DNA of 64,000 nt from Lytechinus pictus (taxonomy: Eukaryota), in the NCBI RefSeq assembly GCF_037042905.1, contig NC_087251.1:13704001-13768000 (forward strand), given 5' to 3'. A program made the position numbers and the translations under genes. The notes beneath the pieces are model-generated. The model made no database searches, was not told the origin of the DNA, and saw only the letters and a program-made list of their open reading frames with translations. How positions within the stretch are numbered: the stretch's first letter is position 1; each line of letters starts with the position of its first letter. Shown piece after piece: positions 4,201-63,891 of this stretch.

Positions 4201-4468
4201 ATGTTTAGGAGACAGAGAGTAAGACAAGAAATTAAGATGATGGATCTTATTATCATATGGTAAGACAATCATCATCTTGTTCTCCAGTCTTGGCTTCCTT
4301 AAAGGTACATGCAGAAAATGATTAAGAGCTACATTAACTTATTGCCTATAGGTATTTGTCATGCAATATTGATTCAGGTTAGAATTTAGGAAATGGGAGT
4401 ACCAAACAAAAACTGGGGGCAGCCAGGACATATTACAAGCTATCCTAAATCCAAGCATATGGGCATAA

Positions 4469-4593
4469 TAGCTCGGTCACATTTGCTCTACGGCGGCCGT
4501 ACGGCGAGTCGAAAACAGCCGTTTTATTAATTTGTTAAAACGGCTGTTTTCGAATTGCCGTACGGCCGCCGTAGAGCAAATGCGATTGAGGTA
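4469..4593. mobile_element. 125-bp hairpin PIF/Harbinger-like MITE
   Basis: Near-palindromic (CATTTGCTCTACGGCGGCCGTACGGC and its reverse complement), TAA/TAA TSD. Confidence 0.82.
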
Positions 4594-21154: not shown

Positions 21155-21737
21155 AGGAGAATGAAACTCTTGGAGCAAGTTACCTTTTGTGAAAGCAGAA
21201 AAATCAAAGAATAAGATCAACAAAACTTTGAGTAAAATAGGACTAACAATAAAAGAGTTATGAGCATTTGAATGTCGAGATCACTAATGCTATGGAGATC
21301 CTCCCATTGGCAATGCGACCAAGATCTGTGATGTCACACACGTACAACTCTCCCATTTGGACACTGAAAATATACCCCAAAACATCTCTTTTTGCTCATT
21401 CTAATCATATGACAAACGATTCATCAATGATATAATGTTGTGAAACCTCTGTACTTGTCATCTCATAAAGAGAACACCTCACCTTGTGATAGACTCTATA
21501 AAAGTGAGAATATAAGTGAAATAAGTACTAAAGTAATGAGGGAGTTGTACGTGTGTGATATCACAGATCTTGGTCGCATTGCCGTTGGGAGGATCTACAT
21601 GGCACTAGTGATCTCAATATTCGAATGCTCATAACTTTCTTATTATTCATTCAATCTTCCTCAAACTTTCAACAATATGTTTCTTTGATTTTTCTCTTTG
21701 ATATGGATTCAGCTGGTTTCAAGGGTTTCATTCTCCT
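21155..21737. mobile_element. Kolobok-like MITE family D, copy 1
   Basis: TIR AGGAGAATGAAAC, TTAA/TTAA TSD, internal inverted segment. Confidence 0.88.
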
Positions 21738-22191
21738 TTAACTTACATTATAAAACATTCTATACAACATCTAAAAACAATTATCAATTGGATCAAGCAT
21801 GTGAGACTGCTTAACGTGAATGAGCCAGCAAAGCACAGAACTTCTTGATAACTTTCATCTATGTTAGGTATGCCTAAGGTTTCAACAGATAAAGATCTTC
21901 TAAATCTTTAGAGGACTAAAAGGATTATCAGAGAATAATCTGTACCGTACCTGAAATTTCAGAAAGGCACTTTAAACAAAAGTGGGCTGTGTTTTCGAGT
22001 GGGAATCCTGTTCAGCTTTTTGTCACTTCGGATTCTCCCATTTCAGTACACACAAAACAATGGAGAATGAATGAATAATGCTGCCAAAGGTGCGGAGCAG
22101 GATTCCTAAGAAAGACATGGCACAGAGTTTTGGAAAGGTGCCTTAAAGTAAAGTTAAGGATTTAAAGCTATTTCATTGAAGTGTTTCTTAC

Positions 22192-38117: not shown

Positions 38118-38191
38118 TTCCCATTATGCAAATTAAAAATCATTCTGCTACACACATCTAAAATGTATGTATGTGAATATGAATTTCTTAA

Positions 38192-38723
38192 AGGTCAAGT
38201 CCACCCCAGATAAATGTTGATTTTAATGAATAGAGAAAAATCAAACAATCATTATGCTGAAAATTTCATGTAAAATAAGAAAGTTATGACATTTTAAAGC
38301 TTTGCTTATTTTTCACAAAACTGATATGCACAGCTCAGTGACATGCAAATGGGACAGGCGATGACGTCTATCACTCACTATTTCTTTTGTTTTTTATTGT
38401 TTGAATTATACAATATTTCATTTTTTACAGATTTTACATTAAGGACCAACTTGATTGAATCATATAGCATTAAACAATACTAATTGCACATGTTCAGGGA
38501 GGAATTAATCGTTGTTTCACTCGACAACAGGGAGAAAATTTGGAATATTTCATATAATAAAATACAAAAGAAATAGTGAGTGAGTGATGTCATCAGTCTC
38601 CTCATTTGCATACCCACAAGGATGTGAATATAACTGTTGATTTTGATGAAATTTTCAGTGTTATGCTTCTTGGATTTTTCTCTTTTTATTCGAATCAACT
38701 TTTTGTTGGGGTGGACTTGTCCT
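38192..38723. mobile_element. Kolobok-like MITE family E, copy 1
   Basis: TIR AGG(T/A)CAAGTCCACCCCA, TTAA/TTAA TSD. Confidence 0.85.
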
Positions 38724-39131
38724 TTAAAGCACAAAGGATTAGAATAAAAAGAGATATTCCTTGAAGTTGAAGCGTGTAGGCCTACAACATGTACAGGTGA
38801 CAACATTTTTAAGATGATACTAGATAAACCTGGAGCCCTGACTTTTCCTGTACCATGTACACGTATGAGTCTTTCTTTTGACAGGAAATAGAGAAAAAAT
38901 ACAAGCAATGCAATAAACTTCTTTTTATAGGTCAAAGTTGTGAAAAAAGGGGTTTACAGAAGAGTCTTTGGGCTTTACAAGTCTGATAAAATAATTACTG
39001 TAGTGTAAATCATATCCTTTTACACAAGAGTGACATTGTGAAGAAAGAATTTTGTTCAACATTGAAGTCTCATAAAATACTACTAGTACAAATAATGAAA
39101 TGTACACTAGCTTGAGATTCAACAAACTTAA

Positions 39132-39732
39132 AGGAGAATGAAACCCTTGAAACCAGCTGAATCCATATCAAAGAGAAAAATCAAAGAAACATATATTGTT
39201 GAAAGTTTGAGGAAGATTGAATGAATAATAAGAAAGTTATGAGCATTTGAATATTGAGATCACTAATGCCATGTAGTTCCTCCCATTGGCAATGCGACCA
39301 AGATCTGTGATGTCACACACGTACAACTCCCTCATTACTTTAGTACTCATTTCACTTACATTCTCACTTTTATAGAGTCTGATTTTATAGAGTCTATCAC
39401 AAGGTGAGGTGTTCTCTTTATGAGAGGACAAGTACAGAGGTTTCACAACATTATATCATTGATAAATCATTTGTCATATGATTAGAATGAGCAAAAAGAG
39501 ATGTTTTGGGGTATATTTTCAGTGTCCAAAAGGGGAGAGTTGTTCATCTGTGACATCATAGATCTTGGTCGCATTGCCAATGGGAGGATCTCCATAGCAT
39601 TAGTGATCTCGACATTCAAATGCTCATAACTCTTCTATTGCTAGTCCTATTTTACTCAAACTTTTGTTGATCTTATTCTTTGATTTTTCTGCTTTCACAA
39701 AAGCTAACTTGCTCCAAGAGTTTCATTCTCCT
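39132..39732. mobile_element. Kolobok-like MITE family D, copy 2 (inverted relative to copy 1)
   Basis: Same TIR and TTAA TSD. Reverse complement of copy 1 with a short internal duplication at ~39367-39395. Confidence 0.88.
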
Positions 39733-39808
39733 TTAAATCTATCCACCAAGGATTATTCCTTGTCTTTTTTCTTGGGGGGAGGGGGATGGAGGCTGCCTAC
39801 AAGCCCTA

Positions 39809-40005: not shown

Positions 40006-40214
40006 TTTGCATTCTAAAAGAATATTGAACTTCGAATTTGTAATTAGCCTACTATCACACTTTTTTCCTATTCATATTTTTATTGGGTACTCAAAAGTGA
40101 CGTACTTGTTCTTTTTTTAGTTACTCTGGATTGCAATAGCTATGAAAAGACCTTTAAAATAATATGAATGGTTATTACAAATGGTTCTTTCAAGTTTCAT
40201 TCATGCTTGCTATA

Positions 40215-41032
40215 CAGTGCATCCCAGAAAAAACGAAACCGAGATTTAGCGATGATTTATCATAACTTAATCATAAATAAAATAGACAAATGACCTACCA
40301 ATGTAAAGCTTAGAATCTCCTCTTTCATCTGGTATTACTTAGATTATTCCTCATTCACGCATGATTGAGCAAAAACAATTCGAAGAAAGGATGCCAAAAA
40401 CTCATTTGGCGGGGGGTATCTGAATTTCAAAAAGAAAATCACATGACTAAAAAGTTCAATATCTTCTCTTTTCTTTGATACCTAAATCACAGAAAATGGT
40501 CAAGTAGTAAAAAAGTTATGATCCCTCGAAACAATGCTTGTATTTCCATAATTTCATTAAATAAACGTGTTTTCACCGGTTTCCCCCTTAAGCTATCACA
40601 CGGCAACAAAAGACTTAATGCATGGCTGATCGTCAACAAAACGGAGTGTCGAGTGAGTTTGAACGCTAGCCTGTAAAACCTCTTCATTTTATGAAATTAT
40701 TGAAATTCAAGCCTTATTTCAAATAACCAGAACTTTGTTATTTCTTGACCATTTTCTGTAATTGAGGTATCAAATTAAAGAGCAGATATTGAACTTTTTT
40801 AAAATGTGGTTTTCTTTTTAAAACCCAGATACGGCCCGCCAAGTGACTTTTTGGTATCCCCTTTTCAAATTGTTTTTGCTCACTCATGCGTGAATGAGAA
40901 ATAATCTAACTAATTTCAGATGAAAGAAGAGATTCTAAGCTTTAAAATGGTAGGTCATTTGTCTATTGTATTTGCGATTAAGTTATGATAAATCATCGAT
41001 AAATCTCGGTTTCGTTTTTGTGGGACGCACTG
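40215..41032. mobile_element. Tc1/mariner-like MITE with long (~300 bp) imperfect TIRs
   Basis: TA|CAGTGCATCCCA...TGGGACGCACTG|TA. The inverted arms extend several hundred bp. Confidence 0.88.
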
Positions 41033-42629
41033 TATTAAATTAGAAAAGCAAGTAAGCAACATCTCCAAAAATAGTTTTTTTTCAGATCTAGACAGGATTC
41101 TGAACTACAAATTTGTGAAAGTTAATCTCTCCTCATGAGAGATAACTCATGCACCTAGTTTTGGGGATCATAGTGCTTTTTTATAACACATCGAGCTGGT
41201 GTGAATTCACCATGCTCTAAAAATCTCCCAAGGGGTACAATTAGAAGTCATAAATCTGACAATATTTATCCCTCAGCTTCTCCATCCAGATACCATATAC
41301 TCACAGAAGAGGTCAAGTTTTAATGGCAGAATTGTATGTTGAAAATTATTTATTGTTTGCTCTATTGGCCAGAGTAGGTGAAAAAATAGGGGGGATAAGT
41401 TACACCCCTGTGGCCAATAAATTTTGAAAATTTGATACCCCCTAGTGCTTGCAGGTCAGTTTATGTAGTACTTACCATAGTAAAGCTCCAATTTGAATGA
41501 TACTCATAACATGAGGCGCAATTTATTTGATGTATGTGTATTCAGTGATATTTTCTGAAACCATTATTCTCATAAATGTTGGCATATCCTGGTAAAAACC
41601 TTATATAATCAACTACAAAATATATATTTTCATAAATCTTAAGATTTTAACAGGTCAATAAAGGACAAATAAAAAAAACTGTAAATCACAAACTCTTGGG
41701 CTATTGACCAATTATTGGCTATATTATTGTATATTATTTTATTTTATATTATATTATATATTACATTGTATATAAAGACAATTCACATTTTCCTTAATGG
41801 TCAAAACTGAAGAGCCAATAAAGCAATTCAGGAATATGGATACTTTGTATTAATTAAATTGGACATGTTTAGATATGGAAATCCTAAAATTACAAATCCT
41901 ACAATTATTTCCTTTTCAATAATGACTCACTGAACAAAAGCATATAAAAACCATCTCAATTGAATATCCTTTCCCTATACATTTTCAAGAAATGCCATGC
42001 TACAACATGTAGGCCTAAATATATAAACAGAATTCAATCTTTTCAGCAAAATCAAGCGTGATAACTATTTGAAATAAGGTCATCTTGTTGTGATAACTTG
42101 ACCCTTGGACCCTGACATCAAAATTCTAATGGATTTACCAGATATATGACAAGGTTTGCATTGAGTTATTCATGCAAGGACATAAATTATGTACAGTATT
42201 TCACATTGATACGAATTTGTCCTCCAAGGAAGTCCCAAACTTCCCTATGAATTTGTATTTTTTTCCCAATAAATTTTTCAAACTAGCTGGAGTGCTCCAC
42301 ATGTTCACTGTAGGCCTAACAAGGACATGTACAAATGTTCAAAGAATATAGAAAGTATTTGCTGGTATATTTCAATGTGGTTAAAATAATAAAAACTTTG
42401 AAGGGAAAATCTTCTATATTCCTGGCATTTTTTAAAGTTCCTTGAAGGCTGACCTTGTAGGACCTACCTTAATTTCAAATTTTAAGAAGCAAGACCAAAT
42501 TCTACATGTATGTACAATATACCATGGGCCCAGAGCAGTAGGTCCATGAGTAACCTGCATGTACATGTACATGTCACTGAGTATTATAAAAGAGCCAAAT
42601 TTCTCTGAAACATTATTCAACAATTCAAA

Positions 42630-43071
42630 GGCCCGAATTCACAAAGGTGGTTTTGAAAAAAAATGAAAACCCACGGTTGAATCCATGGTTTATGCAGATT
42701 TCCTGTATAAATTACGCCTACTTTACCGCGTATCGGTCACGTGTATAAAAAATTCCAATGCTGATTCGCGCTTTTTATCACAGTGCGCCAAATTGACGCC
42801 TGTTACCATGGTTATACACACTATTTTATTCATGAGTCCACTGTTTGAAGAGTGGACTCATTAATTAAAAAAAGTGGACTCGTCACTCATTAATACAATA
42901 GCGTGGATAACCACGGCAACAGGCGTCAATTTGGCACACTGTGACAAAAGCGTGCATCAGCATTGGACATTTTTAATATACGCAGTAAAATAAGTGTAAT
43001 TTATACAGGAAATCTGCATAAACCATGGACTCAACCGTGGGTTTTCCAAACCACCTTTGTGAATTCGGGCC
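42630..43071. mobile_element. Palindromic (foldback) MITE with GGCCC termini
   Basis: GGCCCGAATTCACAAAGGTGGTTT...AAACCACCTTTGTGAATTCGGGCC, ~200-bp imperfect arms. TSD not clear. Confidence 0.82.
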
Positions 43072-46000
43072 ATAGAGTGTGTTCAATTACATTTGCACAA
43101 GATACCGGTAATTGGCACATCTTACTTTAAAACTGACAAGCTCGTTTGAACTTCACATCCTGATATTTACCCTTGTCTATCATCAGATGACCCTTTACTC
43201 CTGACGAGGTCAATGCCCTCTAGCTGCCAAACACTGTACAGTAGCAACTACCTGTACAGACTTTTACTTGATGTTTCCAGGTAAAGTTTATGCCTTTCTA
43301 GCATTTCAGATAGTGAAAACACAGACTGCTGCCAATCAAAACTACTGCAATAATCAGTAGAAGATTTCTTATGATTTGTTGAATCTCATGATCATACTAA
43401 AAGCGAAATCTAAGCGATCAGACTACCACTCAAAGGTATTGTAGGTCTACATGTACATGTACACTGTAATACCGTGTTGACACACTACAGTACACCAGCT
43501 CGCGGATCAGACTCGGTTTACGGGACAAAAACGCAGATCTGCCAATTGCTTGGGCAGACTCGACTTTGTGTTTACACAGAGAAAAATTGCAATGTCTGCC
43601 CCAGCTTGTGAGTCTGATCCTACTATTTTGGCGGTGCAAAAAAGGAGAGTCAGCTCCGGCTCGCGGAGCAAGGTGATCGCATTTAAAGGTGAGTCAGACT
43701 CGCCTCGAGGGTTAGATCCGGGAGCCTGGGTAGCTAGTAGGTCCATGGTAGCATGTAAATGTGGTATTTGGCACCATGCATATAAGGTCCATGATGACAC
43801 CATACCCTCTGGCTAAGCTTCCTACCCAGGTGATGTTATTACTGCACAAACAAAATGGCTCTCTATTTCACTTCGGCCCTTTCTAAGAAACACTTTGACC
43901 ACTGTATAGGCCTACGAGTACTACATATCGGTACATGAATTGGCAAATGTTGGCATATGGCATATTCAACCATTATTTCGACAAATGGTTTCTTTTGCAC
44001 AATGTAAATGATCACTAGGCCTATATGCTCTATTCTTCATGCATACGTTTTAGCCCAACATACAGTCATACCATAAATCAGTTTATGAATACAAATTGAT
44101 TATTGATTATGAAAAAGGTGACCCATAAATGAATGCTATTTTTACCACCCCACTGAATCGATAATTCCTGCAAAGAAATGATCGCCTTTAGCTGCATATA
44201 ATCTATAGGTCCTACATGGCATGCACTGCTATCAACAAGAATTTTTGGACAATTGTTCATGAAGGCCTGCGTGATTTCAGACTAGGTGTAGGCCAGCATT
44301 AGCTTCATGGATTTCTTCTAAGTTTGAATTTAAGGCTCCAAGTATTAAAAAAAAATGGTAAAAATATACAAATAAGAATATTTTTTTCTAGTTACAACTT
44401 CAAAAGCTACAGAAAGTCTTACCATTCAGCACTTGTGCCAAAATACCATTTCAAGTATCTTTTAAAGGGTTTTCTATATATACAAGAATGCCCTTACCTA
44501 CTATGGCCTATAGTTTCATTGAGACTTGGCTGCGTTTGTGAGTTTAACTGCAAATTTTGGAGCAAAACAAATATATCACCTTGACAGAAACAAAAAGGTC
44601 CAATGAAATGGATAAATGCTGGTTTAGAAACCAACGAAATGAAGAAAATAAAAATGATAAAGAGGGAGCATCCTTGTCAAAATGATCTTGTACATTGCAC
44701 TGTACAGGTGGGAAATGAGGTCACTGGGTCACAGGTTCACATGCTACCTTATTAGCAGGCTGACCCTCCCAATCCCTAAAGGTTACCTGAGGTCATCAAT
44801 CAAGTGTCTGTAGACAGAGGGTGTATTGTTTCTGTTTGGGTGTGTGGTCACACTGCACTTACACTTGTTATTCCAAGGTTTCTTCTAGGGGTTGTAGAAC
44901 TGGAAAGAGGGAATGGGGGGGGGGGGGCAGTGGAAGGGGGGGGGGAGGATGAGGAAAGGGGGAATGGACGAAAGACAAATAGAAGGTCTTGCCAGCAGGC
45001 ATACAGAGAGCAATCTCAGCAAAAAGCAGAGTTGCTTAAAAAGAGGAGAAAGATAGGCCTAATTACATGTAAAAGAACATGAGAGAGAAAGAGAGTCAAT
45101 GGAGAAAGAAGGGGACAGGGCCGGGTGAGTGTGTGTGAGGGGAATGGTTCTTCCCAAATAGTAAGCCTAGGCCATAAATTATTCAGAAAGATTCAACAAC
45201 CAAAATATATTCCATTGGCTATCTCCATGGATCAACCTCAGTTCAACTGAATATTTACAGAATGGAAACTAACATTAGAATTGAAATGAAGGCAGACAGG
45301 AGGGAGAATTTGCAAAACTGAAAAGGAAGCTTTGTTCAAACACAATAATTTTGAAATACCGTGAAAAATACTGACTTTTCAGTTTTCGACATCTTCTTTA
45401 GTTTGACAAGTATACATGTAGGGTAAACTTCTTATTCATCAAATAAATCTGAACCACCATCTCATTGAAGTATTCTGAAAACATGCACTTCAATGTCCTT
45501 TGCAGATACACCCTGGACACAAAAAGCATGGGACTACATGTACATACATGTAACATGTGACTATCAAAATGCTTGGGCTCAATAACATGAATTACTTTTG
45601 AAAGTGGCATAAATTCAATATTTTCAGCACTTTTTTCCTCATACAAAGCATAAGCCTGTGCTTATTATATTGTCAGCATTCTTCGTTCCAAAAGTAGGAC
45701 AGAGGCCTATTGTATGCACTGTACACATATTGCTATAGATGTACACATGAATACTGTATGGAGATACATTCAGAGATCTACAATGTATGTATCCCCCCTG
45801 TCTACAATTTTCTTGTCTGTTTAACCCTGGGGATATATAAGGGTGGGGCCAATCCTAAAATTTTTAGATCACCCCCTGCTAGACTCTGTAAAATAAGAAT
45901 ACCCTATGTTTACAGTCAAAATATTACATCCCCAAGTAATCTCTTATAGAAGATTTATACAAATCCAAACCAGATGTGAATCCAATTTGTATAATGCTGC

Positions 46001-49000: not shown

Positions 49001-49167
49001 AAAAATTGTATGATTTCATGCAGTAATACTTTGATCAACTTTACGTTGTTTCTGGATGTTCACTCTCGGATAGTTGAGGGTATATTTCATAATGTATTTC
49101 ACATTTGCTTATTTCGATTTGGGAAAAAAATACATAAATCTTCCTCTACATGTATATTTTTATTTAA

Positions 49168-49751
49168 AGAACAAGTCCACCCCAACAATAAGTTGATTTG
49201 AATAAAAAGAGAAAATTCACCAAGCATAACACTGAAAATTTCATCAAAATCGGATGTAAAATAAGAAAGTTATGACATTTTAAAGTTTCGCTTAATTTCA
49301 CAAAACAGTTATATGCACATACTGGCTGGTATGCAAATGAGGAGACTATGATGTCATCCACTCACTATTTCTTTTGTATTTTATTATATGAAATATTCTA
49401 ATTTTCTCCTAATTGTCAAGTGATACAACAAGTAATTCCTCCCTGAACATGTGGAATTAGCATTGTTTAATACTATATGGTTCAATCAAGTTGGTACTTA
49501 TTGTCAAATGTATATAAAAAAAGAAATATTGTATAATTTAAACAATAAAAACAAAAGAAATAGTGAGTGATGGACATCATCGACTGAGTCACCTAGTTGT
49601 GCATACAACTGTTTTGTGAAAAATAAGCGAAACTTTAAAATGTCACAACTTTCTTATTTTACATCCGATTTTGATGAAATTTTCATCACTATGCTAGTTT
49701 GATTTTTCTCTATTTATTCAAGTCAGCACTTTCCTGGGGTGGACTTGACCT
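49168..49751. mobile_element. Kolobok-like MITE family E, copy 2 (inverted)
   Basis: Ends AGAACAAGTCCACCCCA...GGGGTGGACTTGACCT, TTAA/TTAA TSD. Confidence 0.85.
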
Positions 49752-51639
49752 TTAAAAGTGTGGGGATATGCTCTCTTTTGTATAGTTGCATTACTCTAGT
49801 ATATATATGTGCAAACAATTTGTGTAATTTTTTTAGGACATATAAAAAAAATGAAAAAAAATAATTTGGTCAAAAGGACATAATGTTGTATAATCATTTA
49901 GAAATAAATTGTTCCTTGAAAAATAAATTTACATTGCCTTGACAACAAGAAAAAGGGGTAAAAAACTGACCTTAAAAAAAATGATATGCATTATAATTTG
50001 ATATGAATGCATACACATGCATGTCTTCTGCTCTATTTATTGAACAACTTTTGTAACGAGCGTTCAACCTACATGTAGAGTGTCAACTTTATCACCATTC
50101 ATTGCAGGAAAAGCCACAAATTTATATAAAATTCTTATTGAATTTTGTGGACTGTGGTATACAAAATGAAGACATGCAGGTATTCAGAGAATTCCATACA
50201 CTGTACTTTGTTCCCCGGCCCAAAGTATATTGCCCTCTACTATGAACTTTATAATTATGTTTCAACAAATATGACAGAGCAAAATATCAATAGAGTTTTG
50301 TAGTCAGCCAATCGAAACCCAAAGTATTTAATGAATTTTAATTATTCTTGTGTAAGACTTACAATTGGTAGTAGATCTACAGGCTACTTGGATGGAAATT
50401 ATGATTTGATTTAGTTCAGGATTGATGTATTTGGCAAGTTAATACATGTACAATCAGTGCTAACATTCATAAAATATTTACCATAATATGAATTGGCAAA
50501 TTAAATTCAAACATCTTGAAATACAGTTTAAAAACTTTTCTGTAAAATATTAACTTCATTTTCCACCCAGGCGTGGAGCTGAATGAGTGAGAACAAAATA
50601 TAGAGGGCGTATGACCACTTCCAATCTGTTTTATTATGATAGACTCTCTTTTTACTGTATTCATTCTTCAGAGTAGTAGGTCCATGCTCTTACAAACTAA
50701 ATTGAATCTGGTAAATCTGGTCAAGAATGAATTTATATTGTTATAAACAGTTTCAAGTGAATTCAAATTTCTCTAATTTCAAAGAGGTATGGCAACTGAA
50801 AGCTTATCAGCAAATGTAGGAACCTTTAAATGTGGGCCATTGTTATCAGATGAATTGTTAGGTTTAAAATACAGAACACAAAATAGATAAAACATATTTT
50901 TCTTCAGTAAATGGAATCAACTCCATTCCAAAATAGGAACAACAAAAGTTTTTTTTCAATAACATGAAGAGGAATAAAGATATGTAAAGTTATAAATGAC
51001 AAAGGATTTTCAAAATTATCATGTAAAAAGAGGGAAGTGTGGGGGATCGCAAAAGTGTCAAAGCGTCTCACAAGAACAATCCATTGGAAAACCATATACA
51101 CAAAAGAAACATCAAAGCAATGGACACCTTCTGGAAGGCATGCTAAGAAAAGCAAACAAGATTTTCTTTGACCTTGGCACACAAAAGTATTAATTACAAA
51201 TGTGCAAACTTTCCCTCACTTTACTGCAAGTAGTAGAGCATAACACAACATCGTTTGAAAGGTAGAAAAAAATGAAACAATCATATTGACCTCATTACAA
51301 CTACTCACAATGAATTTGAAAATTGAATTCAATCAAAAGAGTGGGAGAGGGGATTTATAACTGTGTACAATGTGTAGAATTGATCAACTTGTTGAACAAA
51401 TAAGTTGTTAGCTCGATATAATAAATCTTCTCAGTACTGTACAAGACTCCACTGGCAAAGATCGAACTTGTAACTATCCCTTTCCTTAATTCTATCAAAA
51501 TCGTATTTCCACTGACCCAAAACAAAAACAAATATTTACAAAAAGTTTTCAAAATACCTGTTTAAATTCAGCTGTTTGGAAAATTTAATGCAGTTTAATA
51601 ATCAAGTAAAAATTTATGGAATGGAGCAGAAGACACAAA

Positions 51640-54560: not shown

Positions 54561-54875
54561 AGGTCTGGTTAAGGCCAAGGGAGTTCCCTGCAATTCTCCC
54601 TTAAAATATACCATACGACTATACAGTATACATAGGAGTAGGACTAGGACTACCAGTACCAAGTCCAAGCACTTTTCATGAATTCACTCATAAAATCATC
54701 TTGGTCCTGGAGTTGACCAAACTTCTACATTATTTATCAAATACTTAGGGCCTAGCCCCCCCCCCCCACCCCAACATATTCTTGAAATTAAGTTAGTTGA
54801 TAGATTGAAGTTCTTTTACGTAAAATGGACCAAAATAATTATCCCGTATAAGAATGGGCGGCGCGGCTGTCGCTG

Positions 54876-55089
54876 TAGTCCAGATTGGACCTTGTTGCTT
54901 GGAAGTGCTTTTTCCCAAAGCTAACATAGAGGGCACATGTCTCCCAATCTCTAATCAGCGCCAATCCACTCATCTTCCCTCCCCAGGGAAGATGAGTGGA
55001 TTGGCGCTGATTAGAGATTGGGAGACATGTGCCCTCTATGTTAGCTTTGGGAAAAAGCACTTCCAAACAACAAGGTCCAATCTGGACTA
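54876..55089. mobile_element. 214-bp hairpin MITE with 9-bp TSD, AcademH-like
   Basis: 105-bp arms (one mismatch seen) around a CCCC loop (54981-84). Termini TAGTCCAG...CTGGACTA. Perfect TSD CTGTCGCTG at 54867-75 and 55090-98. Confidence 0.85.
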
Positions 55090-55320
55090 CTGTCGCTGTC
55101 ACCCCGCTGACTATGAGGCGCCGAATGTACCAATATTATATAGAACAATTATTTGTTATATAATCATTATTTATTAAATAATAACTATTATTTATATATA
55201 ATTTACATTTTATTTGTAAATAACTACTATTATATAAAATATCATTTCTAATTATTTATATATAATTCCAAGTAATACTTCATTATTTGTAAATAATAAT
55301 AGTTCGACATTCCATTATTT

Positions 55321-55475
55321 ATAAATAATGATTATTTGTTTTTCATTATTTATAAATAATGATTATTTGTTTTTCATTATTTATAAATAATGATTATTTG
55401 TTTTTCATTATTTATAAATAATGATTATTTGTTTTTCATTATTTATAAATAATGATTATTTGTTTTTCATTATTT
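55321..55475. repeat. 31-bp tandem array x5 in the left foldback arm
   Basis: Unit ATAAATAATGATTATTTGTTTTTCATTATTT. Unit junctions form the palindrome CATTATTTATAAATAATG. Confidence 0.92.
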
Positions 55476-55793
55476 ACAAATAATTTGTTGAGTTTTCCAT
55501 TATTTATAAATAATGATTATTTGTTAAATAATGAAAACGTCTACTTCATTATTTATAAATAATTTTTTCGAGTGCACCATTATTCTCATTATTTATAAAT
55601 AATCATTATTTAATGTTCGAGTTTTCCATTATTTATAAATAAAGATTATTTGTTAAATAATGAAATATTTACTTCATTATTTATAAATAATAATTTTGTT
55701 TCAATATCCCATTATTTATAAATAATCATTATTTATAAACAATTTTTACAGTTTGCCATTATATACAAATAATCATTATTTATATACAAATAA

Positions 55794-55893
55794 CCATTAT
55801 TTATTAAATAATGCCATTATTTATTAAATAATGCCATTATTTATTAAATAATGCCATTATTTATTAAATAATGCCATTATTTATTAAATAATG
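55794..55893. repeat. 20-bp tandem array x5 (mirrored at 58151-58250)
   Basis: Unit CCATTATTTATTAAATAATG, 5 copies in each arm. Confidence 0.9.
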
Positions 55894-56603
55894 GAAAACT
55901 CGCTATAACATGCAAATGTGGGACCGCCCATGATATGAATATTCATGATGCGATTTCCTTTTTCGTGATTTTTCTTCACAAATTTTTGTCCATTTCCTCT
56001 TCATAATGACATTTCTTGAAGCAATTTTCTAGGGATATGGTCTGATTGTAATATTCTTCATTTTCTATATAACTTCGTCTTCGTAGAAATATCAAAAAGT
56101 GTAATTTTATACGATTTTTCCTACAGTTCACAATCCCCATAGGCGCGCGTGTACGGTAGGGACAACCGGTGAATCGACGGAGTGCTCTTCATCGAAATAC
56201 TACGTTGGTTGGTCCCCGGAAGTGGCGGGCGGAATTTAGCCCGAATCCTCGATGGAAGTCGATCAAGTGCATATGAGCTGAGAGAGTGAAATATCAGTGT
56301 ACTTGTACAGGCCCTTCTACTTTTTATAAATATTTCTTGTTGCTTTTTTTGTTAAGTTAATTTTTCCTGGTGTAGAGATAAGTTTCAGTTCTAATAATGC
56401 ACTTCAAATACATTTTGGAGTGTCTGTTTGAGGCGTTTGAGGCGATTTCACCCTGGCCCCAAAATGCTCGCAACGACAATACGGGGGCATGATGACCCCT
56501 AAATTTTTAAAAACTTATTTTTCTATTGAAAATTATCACAAAATTCACCAAAAGTGTGCACGAAAGCCTTCGTATTTCACTTTTAAAACTCCAAAAAGTG
56601 CCC

Positions 56604-57190
56604 AAATGACAAGCTTGGTCGCTTCGCTGTGTCGCTTTCAACTTGAGAACGTTTACGCGTCTGCTCCCCCCCCCCCTCCTCCGAAAGAAATTCTGTATAC
56701 GGCCATGCTCTAAAGAGCCTGGCACATTGATTTATGTATACTTTCATTTTCATTATTTTTATCTCATTATCAACATGGCCTTACGCATAATTTTTTCCAG
56801 GGGGGCCGGGGCCGGAGCATGACGCGCGTAAACTTTCTCAAAAAAATCTTGGAAGCGAGACAGCCACGGGACCAAGCCCAAATGACAAGCTTTGTCGCTT
56901 CGCTGTCTCGCTTTCAACTTGAGAACGTTTACACGCGTCTGCCCCCACCCCCCGAAAGAAATTCTGTGAACAGCCATGCTCAAAAGAGCATATGGCACAT
57001 TGATTTATATGTACTTTTCATTTTCATTATTTTTATCACATTATCATCATGGCTAGCTACACAGAATTTTTACCGGGGGGGGGGGGGGGGGGGGGCAGCT
57101 AGGACGCGCGTAAAGTTTCTCAAAAAAATCTTGAAAGCGAGACAGCGACGCGACCAAGCTCAAATGACAAGCTTGGTCGCTTCGCTTTCT
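56604..57190. repeat. Degenerate ~280-bp tandem modules in the foldback core
   Basis: AAATGACAAGCTT(G/T)GTCGCTTCGCT restarts at ~56604, ~56880 and ~57162. Each module has poly-C/poly-G runs and CATGGC...GCCATG inverted motifs. Confidence 0.75.
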
Positions 57191-58568
57191 CAAGATTTTT
57201 ATGAAAAAGTTTACGCGCGTCCTGCTCCCCCCACCCCCCCCCCCCCGGAAAAAATTCTGCGTAAGGCCATGATGATAATGAGATAAAAATAATGAAAATG
57301 AAGTATACATAAATCAATGTGCCAGGCTCTTTAGAGCATGGCCGTATACAGAATTTCTTTCGGAGGAGGGGGGGGGGAAGCAGACGCGTAAACGTTCTCA
57401 AGTTGAAAGCGACACAGCGAAGCGACCAAGCTTGTCATTTGGGCACTTTTTGGAGTTTTAAAAGTGAAATACGAAGGCTTTCGTGCACACTTTTGGTGAA
57501 TTTTGTGATAATTTTCAATAGAAAAATAAGTTTTTAAAAAATTAGGGGTCATCATGCCCCCGTATTGTCGTTGCGAGCATTTTGGGGCCAGGGTGAAATC
57601 GCCCCAAACGCCTCAAACAGACACTCCAAAATGTATTTGAAGTGCATTATTAGAACTGAAACTTATCTCTACACCAGGAAAAATTAACTTAACAAAAAAA
57701 GCAACAAGAAATATTTATAAAAAGTAGAAGGGCCTGTACAAGTACACTGATATTTCACTCTCTCAGCTCATATGCACTTGATCGACTTCCATCGAGGATT
57801 CGGGCTAAATTCCGCCCGCCACTTCCGGGGACCAACCAACGTAGTATTTCGATGAAGAGCACTCCGTCGATTCACCGGTTGTCCCTACCGTACACGCGCG
57901 CCTATGGGGATTGTGAACTGTAGGAAAAATCGTATAAAATTACACTTTTTGATATTTCTACGAAGACGAAGTTATATAGAAAATGAAGAATATTACAATC
58001 AGACCATATCCCTAGAAAATTGCTTCAAGAAATGTCATTATGAAGAGGAAATGGACAAAAATTTGAGAAGAAAAATCACGAAAAAGGAAATCGCATCATG
58101 AATATTCATATCATGGGCGGTCCCACATTTGCATGTTATAGCGAGTTTTCCATTATTTAATAAATAATGGCATTATTTAATAAATAATGGCATTATTTAA
58201 TAAATAATGGCATTATTTAATAAATAATGGCATTATTTAATAAATAATGGTTATTTGTATATAAATAATGATTATTTGTATATAATGGCAAACTGTAAAA
58301 ATTGTTTATAAATAATGATTATTTATAAATAATGGGATATTGAAACAAAATTATTATTTATAAATAATGAAGTAAATATTTCATTATTTAACAAATAATC
58401 TTTATTTATAAATAATGGAAAACTCGAACATTAAATAATGATTATTTATAAATAATGAGAATAATGGTGCACTCGAAAAAATTATTTATAAATAATGAAG
58501 TAGACGTTTTCATTATTTAACAAATAATCATTATTTATAAATAATGGAAAACTCAACAAATTATTTAT

Positions 58569-58816
58569 AAATAATGAAAAACAAATAATCATTATTTATA
58601 AATAATGAAAAACAAATAATCATTATTTGTAAATAATGAAAAACAAATAATCATTATTTATAAATAATGAAAAACAAATAATCATTATTTATAAATAATG
58701 AAAAACAAATAATCATTATTTATAAATAATGAAAAACAAATAATCATTATTTATAAATAATGAAAAACAAATAATCATTATTTATAAATAATGAAAAACA
58801 AATAATCATTATTTAT
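58569..58816. repeat. 31-bp tandem array x8 in the right foldback arm
   Basis: Reverse complement of the left-arm unit, 8 copies counted, with one A>G variant at 58629. Confidence 0.92.
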
Positions 58817-59025
58817 AAATAATGGAATGTCGAACTATTATTATTTACAAATAATGAAGTATTACTTGGAATTATATATAAATAATTAGAAATGATATTT
58901 TATATAATAGTAGTTATTTACAAATAAAATGTAAATTATATATAAATAATAGTTATTATTTAATAAATAATGATTATATAACAAATAATTGTTCTATATA
59001 ATATTGGTACATTCGGCGCCTCATA

Positions 59026-59500
59026 GCTGGCACCCCGCTGGCATAGCGCATGCATATGGCCCATACCACGCCGCCGGGCGCGCCGGGCCGGCCGGCCAGC
59101 CAGCGCCAGCGGCCGCGACGTACCGGTAAGGTACGTCACGTCACGAGTCGGGCCGGCACTGCTGTATTTGTGTTCATTTTCTCTTCAAAATAATATTAAA
59201 TAACAGATTTCATTCCAACTTATTTTAGACTAGAAGTGAAAGTTGGACACTTACCGTACCGGTACGTACACTGTTAAAAGTGTTAGCAGAGCCCGTACCG
59301 GTACCAGAACCAGAGAACCCAGAGATCAGACGTAGCCAAGATTACAAGATAAAGAATTGTACAGTGTACCGTAGTCCCATATGGTATGTTTTCATGTTTT
59401 GAACTTATGTTTTTTTTAATGGCGACTGCCGCGACTCGCTCCTTCATCATGTTCTTCACACTCAGTCATACACACACGTACACACACAGATAAGCCAGTT
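59026..59500 (-). promoter_or_regulatory. GC/CpG-rich patch with candidate non-coding first exon (donor at 59254) of DAAM
   Basis: 59026-59160 is very GC/CpG-rich against the AT-rich background. A consensus minus-strand donor ACG|GTAAGT lies at 59255/59254, with repeated GTACCGGTA palindromic motifs (~59120, 59256, 59295). Linkage to DAAM and the boundaries are inferred. Confidence 0.4.
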
Positions 59501-59759: not shown

Positions 59760-61586
59760 TTAGTGATGTAGAAATAACTTCAGGCGATGTTTTTAAGTTG
59801 TCAAATTTGAAGCCTAATATAAGTAATAAATCTGGACCTGATGGTCTTCATCCTTTTCCATTGAGAGAATTGGCTGATGTATTGGCGCTGCCGTTGTCCT
59901 TAGACTTAGTTACTGTTTAACAAGAGTATGGATAGTGGTTTGATACCCTTGGATCACTCACACAACATGCGAGGTTAGTATACTAACCTCGCACAACGCA
60001 TGTGATTTCATAGTGCATTTTGACGTTTTCATTTCACACGAATGTGAGGGACTAAAACACGCCAAACCTTTCAATATTTTTCCACTATGTTAATCTTGAT
60101 CGTATGATTTAAGTTCATTGTAAAAAGGAATTGGAAATTATTTATAAAAGTGTTTTTATCGCTTACCTCCAAATCCCAAACACGATACTTCGTTCGATCC
60201 GTCCTTAGTCATCCTTCATACTGCGGTGGAAATTACGCAAACAACAATCGAAACGCGAATTTTTCCTATCGAACAGTCTAGATTCAAGTCGCCGGCGCAT
60301 AATAGGAAATTGTACCAAAAATCAACAGGTTGCATGTCATGTTGCATAATCGCTGATGGCGCTACATCATAAAATAACGCTGAACAGCGAAAAAAATGCA
60401 GAGCGCCTAGAACGCAACCAGCAGTACAGCTGATCTGACGTAAACGACATAAACAAGCAAGTTTATTAAATAATATCGCGCGCCCTCTCTGTGCGTATAG
60501 AGAGAACCAGCGAATCAGCCCCATGCCTGCTTCGACATCAAGAAAAATCATCGATATAAAGTACCAGAAAGACAGAGAGGAATTGAAATTGGCTTCATAT
60601 CGTTTTGTAAGTTTCATATCCAAAGCTTATCTGATCTTAAATCCATATATATTGCTAATTTAAAATATATAGCCCGAAAGGCATTGCAAGTGCCGTGCAA
60701 GTGGTTATCCTGTGGACGGCGGCGGTAATGTACCCATGGGTGCCCTTGGATTGGAAGTCTGCTAATATTTCACCTATTTTTAAGAAAGGTAGTAAGGCTG
60801 ATTGTAAAAACTATAGACCGGTGAGTCTAACATTAAGCATTGTTTGTAAAATTACGGAGAAGTTAATCTGTGATAAATTATGTGTATATTTAGTAGAGAA
60901 CGATTTAATTTGTGTCAACATGGCTTTGTTGATGGAAGATCAACTGTCACTAATCTTTTGGAGGTGCTTGATGAGTGGACACAGGTACTAGATGAGGGTG
61001 GTACAATTGATGCCATAGACATGGACTCATGAAAGCGTTTGATACGGTGCCTCATCGGCGTCTTCTTAAGTTGGAATCCTTTGGTATCTGTGGGAAACTC
61101 TACAAATGGCTTATGTCTTTTTTAACGGGTAGACGGCAGCGTGTAGTTGGTGGAAAATCGTCATCCTGGGGAGAAGTACTGAGCCGCGTACCGCAAGGTA
61201 GTGTGTTGGGTCCAACCCTCTTTTAGGTTTTTGTCAATGATCTGCCAAATGTTAAGTCTAATATTGTAATGTTTGCAGATGATACAAAGATGTATGTACG
61301 TTCTGATAGTGTTGACGGTGTCAAACAACTCCAAAGAGATATCTCCCTTCTAGAAGGGTGGGCTGAAAAATGGCAGCTACGATTTCATCCTGATAAATGC
61401 ACCGTCTTAAAGCTAGGAAAAAACAATACAGAAGAGCAGACCAAGTATTACATGAAAGGAGAGTCTAATCTTATTACTCTTAAGGAGGTACAAGCAGAAA
61501 AGGACCTAGGGATACTAATCGACTCAAAGCTGTCTTTTAAAGACCAAGTGTCACAAGCAGCATTAAAGGGTAACAGAGTCCTAGGA
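59760..61586 (+). pseudogene. Decayed CR1/L2-group non-LTR retrotransposon ORF2 (reverse transcriptase) fragment, interrupted at 59955-60742
   Basis: Motifs across frameshifts: GPDGLHP, WKSANISPIFKKG, NYRPVSLT, QHGFVDGRST, KAFDTVPH, VPQGSVLGPTLF, FADDTK, WQLRFHPDKC, EKDLGILID. Boundaries are approximate. Confidence 0.9.
59955..60742. mobile_element. Unclassified 788-bp insertion with 9-bp TSD inside the LINE
   Basis: Perfect direct repeat CCCTTGGAT at 59946-59954 and 60743-60751. Removing the insert restores LINE ...SGLIPLDWKSAN. Ends are CACTCA...TGGGTG, with a 26-bp perfect palindrome at 59968-59993. Confidence 0.8.
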
Positions 61587-61589
61587 AAG

Positions 61590-62330
61590 GAGAGGAGGAC
61601 ATATTGCAATCATCATTTCAGAGGAATGCCTTGACTCATCATTCCAAAAATTACTTTGAAAACCTAAAAAACATCTTATTCTATCAAGCACACAGTTTAC
61701 CCAATTTACCAAAACTTGGAAAAAGTGGTATCTGCACAGGTTTGTCTTCGACATCAATCAATTTGGTCATGCATGACACAAATGGTACAAATAGGGTATC
61801 AAGGTGAAGCTGAGAAGTTTCTCTTTCACATCCATGCAGAATAATTTTACGAAGGGCAAGTCCAAGAATAGGTCACTCTAGAAGACAAAATTTCATCTTT
61901 ATTCTAAAAACTTATCTTTGGTGGGTTAAGAAAGCCCAAATGTTGAGTTTCATTAAGAAAAATGTAATAATATGCAAATTTATGCTAATTTGGGGCACCT
62001 AATTTTCATAATTGGTAAAATGGGCATCACGTATGGGACAATGATACAAACTCATAGAAAATCAAAACAAAACTTGTGAGATTTAGTCATACACGTAGGT
62101 GGGACATGGACCCCCTAACATCTTATTACTTTTGGGGGAAAAGTGGTGTCATCTACTTAAATATGCAAATTAGGTCTTGTCCAAGGATGGAATGTCCCAT
62201 ACGTAATAAAATTTTAGGATTAAAAAAAAAAGTTATTTCTCAGAATACAATACTTGTATTATTGCATCTCTGGGAAGTTCTAATTTATTGAGTAAGAAAA
62301 TGTTATACCACAAAAAGTTTCAAAAATATA
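61590..62330. mobile_element. Probable non-coding DNA element that truncates the LINE and hosts the Tc1 (continues after 63893)
   Basis: LINE similarity stops abruptly near 61586 and the sequence begins GAGAGGAGG. The motif CGTATGGGACA recurs on both sides of the Tc1 (62030, 62193 reversed, 63932, 63951). Confidence 0.4.
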
Positions 62331-63891
62331 CACTGTTGGTCATAAAGGTGGAATAAAATATGTTTGAATAAAAATTGACAGTTTTGTTGGTATTTGAAAG
62401 GCTACGCGTAGACGAAATGGTAATTGTGCGTGATTACATAATGTTTCCCCATTACACAGGTGACATAACATGAGAAATTTGGATTACGTAATAAAACCTT
62501 TTGTTGTAGACTATAAAAGCCTATGCATATGATATTCTGTCCCTTTCCCTGATTTAGCACTGTGTATAAGAAGGTTGCATTTTTTCGAGTTCCTTGTACC
62601 GTTTGAAATAAAAATTGGTAGAGACGTTCCCTGGACTATGCCTGGTCCAACGGCAACAGCAACACGCGAGAGAGTGGTAGCACTGCGACATGAGGGCTAC
62701 AAGCAGACTGATACCGCAGAAGTCCTAGGGATATCACAGAGTGCAGTCTCTAAGATCCTGAAACGTCAACGTGAGGCGGGGAATGTGCGGCCACGGAAAT
62801 CTCCAGGACGTCCCAGATTGACCACAAGAAGAGATGATAGCCAACTGTTGAATTTCAGCCGCAGAAATCGGAAATTGCCCACGAGCCGTCTTCGTCGCTT
62901 GTGGAGGAGATATCATGGGATCAACGTTTCCCGGTCAACCGTTAATCGCAGATTGCTCTTACATGGTTACCGAGCACGACGGTTTAACAAATGTCCACGC
63001 CTGTCTGTTCGCCACAGAGTAGCTCGTCTTCTTTGGGCTAGGGAGCACAGAAGGCTTCATCCAGGACATTGGCAACATGTGGTCTTCACGGACGAGAGCC
63101 AGTTCATCCTTGACCGAAAGGATGGGAGACAACGAGTTCGTCGATTAGCCGGGGAAAACCTTCGCGATGAATGTATCCACGAGACGACTCAAGGCGGAGG
63201 CGGCTCAGTGATGATATGGGCCGGCATCCATTATGGAGGGAAAACGCCACTGGTGGTTCCGGACGGAAACGTCAACGCCGCCGCCTACAGGGATATCTTG
63301 GAGTTCCACTGTCTTCCTTATGCAAGACGAGTGTATGGGCACAATTTCCGACTGCAGGATGACAACGCTAGACCGCACAGGGCCGCTGCAGTAAGGGAAT
63401 TCCTGGAGGCAGAGGGCGTCGTACAGTTGCCATGGCCAGCTTGTTCGCCGGATATGAACCCCATAGAGCATGCATGGGATGCCCTAGGCCGAGCCATCAA
63501 CGACAGAGAGGTCATTCCTGAAAATCTGCTGGAGTTGGCAGATGCTCTGAGGGAAGAATGGGACGCTATGGCTGTTGATGTCATCAACAAGCTAGTGGAC
63601 AGCATGCCACTACGTCTGCATGCGCTGGTTCGTGCCAGGGGTGGACATACCCGATACTAGTGACTGAGTAAGAACAATGACTCAAGTTTGATGCAAATTT
63701 GTCCATGAAATCACAAAAAAGAAGTCATCTGGAAAACTGAGAGTGATTGAAAATAAATATCTCATGATCCTTTAATTTACTGTATATTGTCGTCATTGTT
63801 GTTCTATGCTCATGACATCCATCGCTTAGGACATAAACTTTTAAATATTTAATTATATATAAAAAAATATCCACCTTTATGACCAACAGTG
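62331..63891 (+). mobile_element. Full-length Tc1-family DNA transposon (1561 bp)
   Basis: Perfect 22-bp TIRs CACTGTTGGTCATAAAGGTGGA at both ends, TA TSD (62329-30 and 63892-93), an internal intact transposase ORF, TATAAAA at ~62512 and AATAAA at ~63692. Confidence 0.96.
62638..63660 (+). CDS. Tc1 transposase, DD34E, 340 aa
   Basis: From ATG 62638 (the ORF track starts at an upstream TTG): N-terminal HTH region, GRPR motif, VFTDES, QDDNARPH and WPACSPDMNPIEH, with 34 residues between the second D and the E. No stops or frameshifts. Confidence 0.95.
   Translation: MPGPTATATRERVVALRHEGYKQTDTAEVLGISQSAVSKILKRQREAGNVRPRKSPGRPRLTTRRDDSQLLNFSRRNRKLPTSRLRRLWRRYHGINVSRSTVNRRLLLHGYRARRFNKCPRLSVRHRVARLLWAREHRRLHPGHWQHVVFTDESQFILDRKDGRQRVRRLAGENLRDECIHETTQGGGGSVMIWAGIHYGGKTPLVVPDGNVNAAAYRDILEFHCLPYARRVYGHNFRLQDDNARPHRAAAVREFLEAEGVVQLPWPACSPDMNPIEHAWDALGRAINDREVIPENLLELADALREEWDAMAVDVINKLVDSMPLRLHALVRARGGHTRY

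Follow-up and report, generated by a model that had tools for sequence, protein, structure and literature searches.

The window analysed here, a 64,000-nucleotide stretch of the 812-Mb genome of Lytechinus pictus, contains a foldback element of 3914 bp flanked by a target-site duplication (TSD). The parts of the element and its flanks are the following.

55106..55111, plus strand: left TSD, GCTGAC, matching the right copy at 5 of 6 positions
55112..59025, no strand: whole non-autonomous foldback element; 89% of its bases pair with its own reverse complement
55112..55893, plus strand: left outer domain, with terminus TATGAGGCGCCGAATG, then AT-rich arrays (31-, 129- and 20-bp periods) and 11 copies of the palindrome A[CT]TTATAA[AG]T
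55894..56599, plus strand: left inner domain, non-repetitive, with a CpG-rich box at about 56136-56300
56600..56881, plus strand: 282-bp unit A, an imperfect palindrome (DNA fold z = -7.0)
56877..57160, plus strand: 282-bp unit B, a diverged direct copy of A (84% match)
57161..57169, no strand: 9-nt loop CAAATGACA, the centre of the innermost hairpin
57170..57444, minus strand: inverted unit A', the innermost part of the right arm
57445..58150, minus strand: right inner domain, with 3 differences from the left in 702 aligned bases
58151..59025, minus strand: right outer domain, ending in CGGCGCCTCATA, with 14 of the palindromic motifs and three more 31-bp units than the left
59026..59031, plus strand: right TSD, GCTGGC

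The window copy thus reads GCTGAC (55106-55111), TATGAGGCGCCG...CGGCGCCTCATA, GCTGGC (59026-59031), and the coordinates, termini and imperfect 6-bp TSD given in an earlier note on this DNA proved exact. Although the TSD of this copy is imperfect, its boundary is fixed because in all 20 other copies whose two ends were read (18 copies with both ends exact, plus L048 and L068) an exact 6-bp TSD lies outside TATGAGG...CCT(C/T)ATA. A TSD of 17 bp or 9 bp for the window copy was considered and rejected, since the insertion target falls within a short local repeat, and the other copies give 6 bp. Inward from the tips, 55112-55415 pairs with 59025-58722 without a mismatch in 304 bp, followed by a 93-bp (3 x 31) array difference between the arms; 55416-56741 then pairs with 58628-57303 with 5 substitutions in 1326 bp, and beyond a single-base indel at 56742, the stretch 56743-56798 pairs with 57302-57247 with 2 differences in 56. 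The left arm is about 1.69 kb long and the right about 1.78 kb. This alignment bears out the near-identical inverted arms of about 1.7-1.8 kb that had been described, and it locates all three kinds of difference claimed for them (substitutions, a 1-bp indel and array copy number). No protein-coding gene was found in the element: it has two ORFs longer than 100 codons, and the longer, of 190 codons at the element centre, had no Pfam match, the Pfam scan having covered this one of the two.

The layout is that of a foldback transposon in most respects, with long TIRs, tandem-repeat outer and non-repetitive inner domains, and no coding ORF. The AT-rich outer domain of tandem arrays and the distinct inner domain noted earlier differ in composition (14.6% GC in the outer domain, 38% in the inner). 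The same note saw an outer/inner/middle likeness to TU and FB elements, which holds for the arms and not for the middle. Its "~340-bp core" is no distinct middle; it consists of the tail of unit A and the diverged extra unit B, whose own tail pairs with the right arm around the 9-nt loop. The separate non-TIR middle of a classical foldback is replaced by copies of the arm's innermost unit, and a unique middle is absent: the centre is made of 282-bp palindromic units around the loop. Other copies have zero to two of unit B. The spacer motif of the centre is almost confined to the family, with 98 of the first 100 matches in family-type clusters, and the idea that the 282-bp unit is a dispersed MITE is unsupported at the exact 17-mer level and within the window. 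An Rfam scan gave 13 matches, all far under the gathering scores and mostly to miRNA hairpin models.

The element belongs to a large family. Its terminal 16-mer, allowing at most one mismatch, occurs 657 times forward and 649 times reverse (2 and 0 for a control), and the terminal 89 bp gave 973 candidates, of which 40 of 40 scored were at 100%. Because 324 of the 1306 ends are of an older ATTGT type, the family is estimated to number about 490 copies, alongside roughly 160 relatives of the older type. The inner arms lie only 0.5% from their own consensus (34 arms). Hundreds of copies with no coding gene found in the element agree with the proposal of a non-autonomous multi-copy foldback family. 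It is worth asking whether such a structure could be a read chimera or assembly artefact from end to end, as its palindromic form by itself might suggest. The chance of this is negligible, in agreement with the earlier note's rejection of a read chimera: exact TSDs surround hundreds of copies at unrelated sites, the contigs of an independent run span all 30 inner-domain bins, and there are nested insertions within arms. The TSD tally already refutes the artefact reading.

The ends and the TSD point to the superfamily. Tabulating TSD lengths across copies, a step that the earlier note had proposed, gave 6 bp in all 20, one of them uninformative as it lies in a G run. Among these, the 18 copies with both exact ends all have a TSD of 6 bp, and in the 13 of them in which the longest exact repeat flanking the ends was determined it was 6 bp in every case. 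The window copy and all 18 exact-ended copies have TATG..CATA termini, and one further copy ends TTATA. GC content is slightly raised in the TSDs, at 45% over 18 of them compared with roughly 36% for the window. In the available text of PMC10045372, PMC12730594 and PMC6839031, IS3EU elements "always" have TA..TA ends and usually a 6-bp TSD, the ends also being given as TAYGG..CCRTA, and GingerRoot elements have TA..TA ends and 6 bp, with Polintons ending in AG and Ginger in TG; TAY..RTA ends with a 6-bp TSD as the IS3EU signature, named in the earlier note, agree with these sources. Both features are present here, as is the GC-rich TSD, with TAT..ATA as the local form of the ends. Judged by ends and TSD, the family would belong to IS3EU/GingerRoot. 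Another enzyme that makes 6-bp TSDs, such as a Ginger2, a Polinton- or LTR-type integrase or one of an undescribed superfamily, might have moved it, the TA..TA ends being convergent; a transposase of the family's own was not found, and 6-bp TSDs also come from Ginger2, Polintons and some LTR elements. This is improbable, since these groups end in TG..CA or AG, against TA here, and since an IS3EU family of the same genome (below) yields foldbacks that match these in size, layout and TSD length. The element is probably a gene-less DNA transposon of IS3EU/GingerRoot type, young and present in high copy number, that moves by cut and paste and is built as a foldback.

No coding element with TATGAGG ends turned up among the first 100 end matches listed per search, in six long end-pairs or in the DNA upstream of ten PF24764 loci. 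None of the six long end-pairs was coding as far as read. At C1:16.95 Mb, C2:24.47 Mb, C2:29.44 Mb and C3:79.89 Mb, other DNA has broken up a family copy, and in those at C2:30.60 Mb and C3:33.08 Mb, sampled over 1.2-1.7 kb per side, the sequence next to one or both ends on the inner side is unrelated and repeat-like. Nested insertions or interruptions by other DNA are thus seen in some family copies (four of the long end-pairs). Upstream of the ten PF24764 loci no similarity to the arms was seen. F3 was rejected as a partner with the same ends because its tips are different; F2 and F2b have 53-bp arrays and were read short of their ends; and C13/C19, C12/C11, C8:18.47 Mb, C7:1.97 Mb, C2:41.2 Mb and C1:26.6 Mb lack arm similarity upstream. 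A seeming sister family with a common 12-bp tip (196 matches) was also rejected, as the six loci read are the reversed 3' part of a tRNA-type SINE, with no TIR and no TSD.

F3, a sister family in the same genome, codes for a PF24764 transposase (E 4e-23) and a HECT-like gene, and its core motifs WHxDSYDKLK, GCIDGFSR, DPKVI and NQRIE match IS3EU-1_CGi and IS3EU-1_DR by eye. Its ends are TACGGAGCCCG, and an exact 6-bp TSD is found in three of four coding and four of five short copies; F3 thus has a DDE core like that of Repbase IS3EU proteins, between TAY..RTA ends with a 6-bp TSD. With 13 loci of 98-100% protein identity it is the most numerous intact IS3EU family found. The two short F3 copies that were read completely both have foldback form, with arms of 0.84-1.03 kb that are 96.5-97.6% identical, and the F3 foldbacks share the array and about 190 bp with the right end of the coding element. 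An origin of foldbacks from IS3EU is therefore shown directly for F3, in the same genome. F3 and its foldbacks (L052, L074, L075) were compared with the window family; the foldbacks resemble it in size (3.7-3.9 kb), in arms of an array plus an inner domain, in TAY..RTA tips and 6-bp TSD, and in a TTATAA-cored array motif; they differ in having no alignable sequence in common with it (no blastn similarity), shorter arms, a true middle of 1.7-2.1 kb and a coding parent. Coding IS3EU members of the genome also carry subterminal tandem arrays. For the claim that an IS3EU transposase is the mover, the sister family supplies the passage from IS3EU to foldback, but no transposase element with the family's own ends was found in the search described above.

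A narrower form of this explanation is that F3 specifically moves the window family, cross-mobilising it via common TTATAA boxes; otherwise the family's own partner may have been lost, or be rare or missed. Besides the abundance of intact F3, the distribution of the motif A[CT]TTATAA[AG]T speaks for this: the two outer domains in the window have 11 and 14 copies and the F3 arrays 19-24, with none in two other IS3EU arrays or in the window's other 60 kb. By eye, the tips can also be aligned as TAYGRRGC(G)CCGA if three transitions and one gap are allowed. However, the motif was defined after viewing both arrays, which makes the count a lead and not a test; ungapped, the tips match at just 6-7 of 13 bases, when the likely tip of another IS3EU locus (L096, a single copy) matches at 9 of 13; and F3 has given few short derivatives of its own, 13 short pairs in 70 ends, against about 490 copies here. 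F3 as the specific mover is possible but less likely than not.

Within copies, the arms are coupled. They differ by 4.9 positions within copies and by 7.9 in permuted pairs (16 copies), with 0 of 100000 permutations as low as observed, and the 31-bp array number correlates between arms (rho 0.72, p 0.0007, 18 copies). Three copies (L033, L037, L038) have arms as different as random pairs, with 9-10 differences. Arms of one copy being more alike than chance points to arm-to-arm conversion. Long palindromes are difficult to polish, and in a real element the likeness could stem from assembly or polishing, one arm's reads having been laid on the other. This is unlikely, as the arms still differ in 15 of 16 copies, some strongly, and as a two-column variant is present on both arms of L039, L040, L042 and L048 and on one arm of L038, a pattern that fits inheritance and exchange better than local polishing.

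Stranded family RNA reads show A-to-I-type hyper-editing on both strands. These come from two raw-read runs whose organism label differs from the best DNA source, and they stand without matched DNA. There were 88 A>G and 79 T>C places in X23, and 85 and 77 in X24, with all other kinds of change together at 16 in each. In X23, T>C changes split by strand as 78/136 versus 0/81, and A>G changes as 0/154 versus 123/153. Hyper-editing extends across the left inner domain, and 29 of the 30 changes listed occur in 0 of 34 genomic arms. Such heavy editing of the RNA made from these copies is characteristic of double-stranded RNA.

Long-armed foldbacks are known from other systems. The TU elements (Liebermann 1983; Hoffman-Liebermann 1985) reportedly share a sea urchin host and arms of outer tandem and inner domains, and one class is said to have an outer domain only, which may be compared with L068 here, of about 0.9 kb. 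TU1 is said to have arms of about 840 bp, 15-bp repeats, an 8-bp TSD (6 bp here) and a real middle segment, and this description sets it apart from the window family. Drosophila FB/Tetris elements, in the portions of PMC4079207 available, are alike in their modular long TIRs with tandem-repeat and inner domains, their lack of coding capacity and an autonomous partner not found; they are unlike in their 8-10-bp TSDs, assignment to Mutator and separate middle domain. Galileo of Drosophila (P superfamily) has a P-type THAP transposase, 7-bp TSDs and shorter TIRs, of up to about 1.26 kb in the study concerned (excerpts of PMC3688188, PMC3573991), and with 6 bp the present family agrees with neither TSD length. 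Published IS3EU-type TIRs are short, 100-150 bp in GingerRoot and >30 bp in rust fungi (same parts of PMC10045372, PMC6839031 and PMC12730594), compared to 1.7-1.8 kb here, where there is no transposase gene and the TIRs almost meet in the middle. The palindromic Harbinger repeats of Xenopus, as described in PMC5625713, are likewise self-complementary DNA transposons with hyper-edited transcripts, of about 200 bp as against about 3.9 kb.

These observations suggest the following mechanism. An IS3EU DDE transposase acting in trans would bind the A[CT]TTATAA[AG]T boxes that recur in the outer arrays, making these a putative transposase-binding array, and would cut at the TAT..ATA tips; the copies show insertion at many unrelated sites by a 6-bp staggered cut outside the TA..TA ends. 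The element may have originated when one end of an autonomous element was placed on both sides and the genes were lost, as in the F3 foldbacks. Conversion or recombination between arms would keep them alike and reshuffle the centre, which gains, loses and flips 282-bp units among the copies. The element is almost one continuous palindrome, and transcription through a copy would give long double-stranded RNA and ADAR editing.

Foldback architecture has so far been linked mainly to Mutator and P/Galileo (available text of PMC4079207), and with foldbacks arising in an IS3EU lineage the list grows by one superfamily. Each theme singly has precedent; their combination was not found in the literature searched. 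Intact F3 coding copies exist in this genome beside their derivatives, so that what mobilises sea urchin foldbacks, a long-standing question, can be put to the test. With roughly 490 near-identical 4-kb palindromes, an estimated 1.9 Mb or 0.24% of the genome, the family offers a natural setting in which to study arm-to-arm conversion and the way ADAR deals with very long hairpin RNA, and potentially also ectopic recombination like that through which Galileo generates inversions. More speculatively still than the F3 proposal above, IS3EU/GingerRoot may be a recurrent, undescribed source of TU/FB-like foldbacks in sea urchins, with one live transposase, that of F3, moving both its own foldbacks and the 490-copy family, unrelated to them in sequence, via the common TTATAA array while tolerating different tips. 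If true, a foldback element would have been matched with an intact enzyme, and 2-kb RNA hairpins that homogenise themselves, in their hundreds, would be a major ADAR substrate.

The element occupies window positions 55112-59025, with termini TATGAGGCGCCG and CGGCGCCTCATA and flanks GCTGAC/GCTGGC, which reproduces the boundaries given in the earlier note, the imperfect target site duplication (TSD) included. When the arms are paired from the tips inward, the first 304 bp are without mismatch, followed by a difference of three 31-bp array units. Further inward, they pair across 1326 bp with 5 substitutions, then come a 1-bp indel and another 56 bp with 2 substitutions, and all the arm differences described earlier (substitutions, a 1-bp indel and array copy number) are thus seen in the alignment. 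The AT-rich outer domain of tandem arrays and the inner domain are likewise present, with a GC content of 14.6% and 38%, respectively. The element is near-completely palindromic, as aligning its left half to its right half pairs 89% of all its bases. The ~340-bp core had been taken for distinct DNA, but it is not unique: the order at the centre is unit A, unit B (282-bp period, 84% match), a 9-nt loop and an inverted unit A', and each 282-bp unit is an imperfect palindrome by itself (fold z = -7.0). Within the inner domain, window 56519-56571 is common to a very high-copy repeat. Depth has a spike there in sequencing run X13, and loose ends are numerous in each of the four runs, which points to capture of a piece of another repeat by the arm.

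A 216-bp, almost perfectly palindromic MITE (window 54875-55090) is found 21 bp left of the element. Its boundaries are ambiguous, with either a 9-bp TSD CTGTCGCTG and TAGTCC ends or a 7-bp TGTCGCT and GTAGTCC ends. Window 59026-59135, within an AT-rich region, is short and very rich in both GC and CpG, and the element and the MITE are at its edge. Other features in the window are:

Window 62533-63660: Tc1-type transposase, open frame of 375 codons, with DDE_3, HTH_Tnp_Tc3_2 and PAX matches
Window 61227-61634: fragment with a weak RVT_1 (reverse transcriptase) match, below the curated cut-off
Window 21150-21744 and 39125-39737: palindromic MITE-like pair, apparent TTAA/TTTAAA-type flanks
Window 38188-38728 and 49163-49756: palindromic MITE-like pair, flanks of the same apparent type
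Window 40212-41035, 42615-43087 and 4468-4594: further palindromic MITE-like elements

Judged by its sequences, the main family is young and large. A sea urchin host is indicated by a transposase from this genome, whose two closest named relatives (91-92% identity) are Lytechinus pictus sequences. In the 812 Mb genome, 973 candidates matched the terminal 89 bp, and all 40 that were scored did so at 100%; the terminal 16-mer with at most one mismatch gave 657 + 649 matches, compared to 2 + 0 for the control. Because 324 of these end matches belong to an older variant, whose elements are mostly ~1 kb, the copy number is estimated at about 490 for the main family and about 160 for the older variant. 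A central motif has 1262 matches, around three per element, corresponding to ~430 elements, which is similar to the end-based estimate. The copies with both exact ends (n=18) are 1.6-4.4 kb long, 17 of them within 3.5-4.4 kb, and inner arms (n=34) are 0.5% from their own consensus. Diverged relatives are found in contigs of X13, a run under another organism label. The older subfamily has the tip TATGAGGCGCCGATTGT (L068, L069, L092/L093) and includes palindromes of ~0.9 kb with the outer domain only; in a variant of it the inner domain is longer by ~190 bases, which also appears as a joint in run X1. The tail of a tRNA-type SINE, in reverse (L061-L066), has 15 bases in common with the older tip, TATGAGGCGCCGATT, which is probably a coincidence. 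One locus of the older type is:

G000:C2:44269030-44269937: L068, palindrome of ~0.9 kb, outer domain only

The earlier note had called for TSD lengths to be tabulated across copies, and they are 6 bp in the copies tallied. For all of 13 copies, the flanks share an exact repeat of 6 bp and no longer. Every one of the 18 copies that have both exact ends (those 13 included, and one in a G run) is flanked by an exact 6-bp TSD. The same holds for L048, which has one mismatch at its right tip, and for L068 of the older type; the tally is without L049, whose right end was not reached. The family has transposed, with a 6-bp cut. The 18 TSDs have a weak palindromic target bias, G-N-T-A-N-C, with positions 1, 3, 4 and 6 matched in 8, 9, 10 and 9 of them. 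According to Kojima and Bao (PMC10045372), TA..TA ends are invariable in complete IS3EU families and a 6-bp TSD is the usual length, and IS3EU and GingerRoot make up a single lineage. IS3EU elements of fungi are described with TAYGG..CCRTA ends (PMC12730594). The remaining groups with a 6-bp TSD are given termini AG or TG (PMC6839031), in contrast to the TA termini of the main family.

The arms of a copy are coupled, and the centre is changing. Over ~700 bp of inner domain, 16 of 20 elements (L034, L043, L044 and L045 were excluded, the anchor missing on at least one arm) have 4.9 mean differences within copies versus 7.9 for permuted pairs, and 0 of 100000 permutations were as low. Variants on both arms that are absent from all other sampled copies occur in 7 of the 16; L040, for example, has a private 14-bp deletion and 4-bp insertion on both. 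Array copy number also correlates between arms (rho 0.72 for the 31-bp and 0.58 for the 20-bp array; 18 copies, leaving out the deleted L043 and L045). Arms that are 9-10 changes apart in L033, L037 and L038, and a subfamily variant on one arm only in L038, count against full homogenisation. Among the first 100 of the 1262 central-motif matches there are 36 complete clusters, with three units in 21, two in 9, four or five in 3, one in 1 and a lone match in 2, and in the copies read there are cases of fused A and B units, of doubling inward and of a centre that is flipped. As proposed for Galileo (PMC3573991), the pattern of arms and centre is consistent with gene conversion together with unequal exchange, acting between copies in direct and in inverted orientation. 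Less probably, the likeness of arms within copies comes from polishing error rather than conversion.

With the inner domain 55895-56600 (196 A, 241 T) as the target, X23 and X24, two stranded RNA runs sampled at ~6% each, gave 141 and 103 reads, most of them <90% alike. A>G changes are seen at 88 places and T>C at 79 in X23, and at 85 and 77 in X24, with all other kinds together at 16 in either run. In X23, T>C makes up 78/136 base calls in first-mate-plus reads and 0/81 in first-mate-minus reads, and A>G 0/154 and 123/153, counted over 26 of the 30 A>G/T>C rows among the matches listed, without 56053, 56440, 56509 and 56526, which are also variable in DNA contigs. For 29 of the 30 rows the change is in 0/34 genomic arms, 56440 being a true arm polymorphism. 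Of these 29, 17 have U and 2 have G as the 5' neighbour, and a bias of U over G is the known preference of ADAR. We read the changes as A-to-I hyper-editing of double-stranded RNA, in reads that may come from any copy and in two runs of one study, because allelic differences could not be divided by strand in this way. The double-stranded RNA may also be formed by sense-antisense pairing (PMC9989829); palindromic transposons are reported to be hyper-edited (PMC5625713).

Searching the genome for the transposase domain profile PF24764 gave 89 matches, and a protein search 64. The most numerous intact family, F3 (13 loci, 98-100% identity), combines a PF24764 transposase with a HECT-like gene in convergent orientation, and by eye the transposase core agrees with the rows for IS3EU-1_CGi and IS3EU-1_DR in the supplement of PMC10045372. 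Its ends, TACGGAGCCCG(A/G)GAGG, have 35 + 35 matches versus 0 + 2 for the control. F3 has 20-bp subterminal arrays, TACGGAG ends, a 6-bp TSD and foldback derivatives of 3.7-3.9 kb. Exact 6-bp TSDs flank 3/4 coding copies, the fourth being a nested locus. Thirteen pairs of ends enclose just 3.5-4.6 kb, with exact TSDs in 4/5 of those checked, and both short copies that were read whole are foldbacks. Their arms (0.84-1.03 kb, 96.5-97.6% identity) consist of a 20-bp outer array and an inner domain, around a common middle of 1.7-2.1 kb, and share the array and ~190 bp with the right end of coding F3, not the left. The F3 loci include:

G000:C3:55705581-55709249: foldback L074
C10:8206760-8210640: foldback L075
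C17:12339927-12350798, C21:7416461-7431448 and C3:28523959-28537140: coding copies, intact-looking

A separate multi-copy element of ~6.5 kb, starting with TAG and having 385- and 177-bp subterminal repeats, is inserted in an F3 arm (L052:6434-9901). By eye, a THAP-like exon was recognised in another IS3EU group, F2/F2b (L067:898-1434, L053/L055), whose transposase is preceded by long arrays of 53-bp period. Decayed PF24764 transposase fragments form dense tandem clusters at G000:C4:22.36-22.40 Mb and C18:1.99-2.01 Mb.

The window family is probably moved by an IS3EU enzyme; that this enzyme is the one of F3 is possible, but rather doubtful. No coding element with TATGAGG ends was found among 6 long end pairs from the matches listed, or by arm similarity on the upstream sides of 10 PF24764 loci. 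F3 and the window element have no blastn similarity, and the only links are size, layout, a loose likeness of the tips and the palindromic array motif A[CT]TTATAA[AG]T. This motif, defined after both arrays had been seen, occurs 11 and 14 times in the window outer domains and 19-24 times in F3 arrays, and 0 times in two other IS3EU arrays and in the rest of the window. As the Galileo transposase binds repeats in its TIR (PMC3688188), an IS3EU enzyme would by analogy bind the outer-array boxes.

Mutator is the superfamily given for most foldbacks, Galileo (P) being an exception, and repeated origins are assumed for this structure (PMC4079207). Among the literature matches listed there was no description of an IS3EU or GingerRoot foldback, and Repbase, Dfam or the TU papers may already contain the family. 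Given the arms, the TSDs and the stretch in common with the right end of the coding element, an IS3EU element, F3, is demonstrably the source of its own TU/FB-like foldbacks in this genome.
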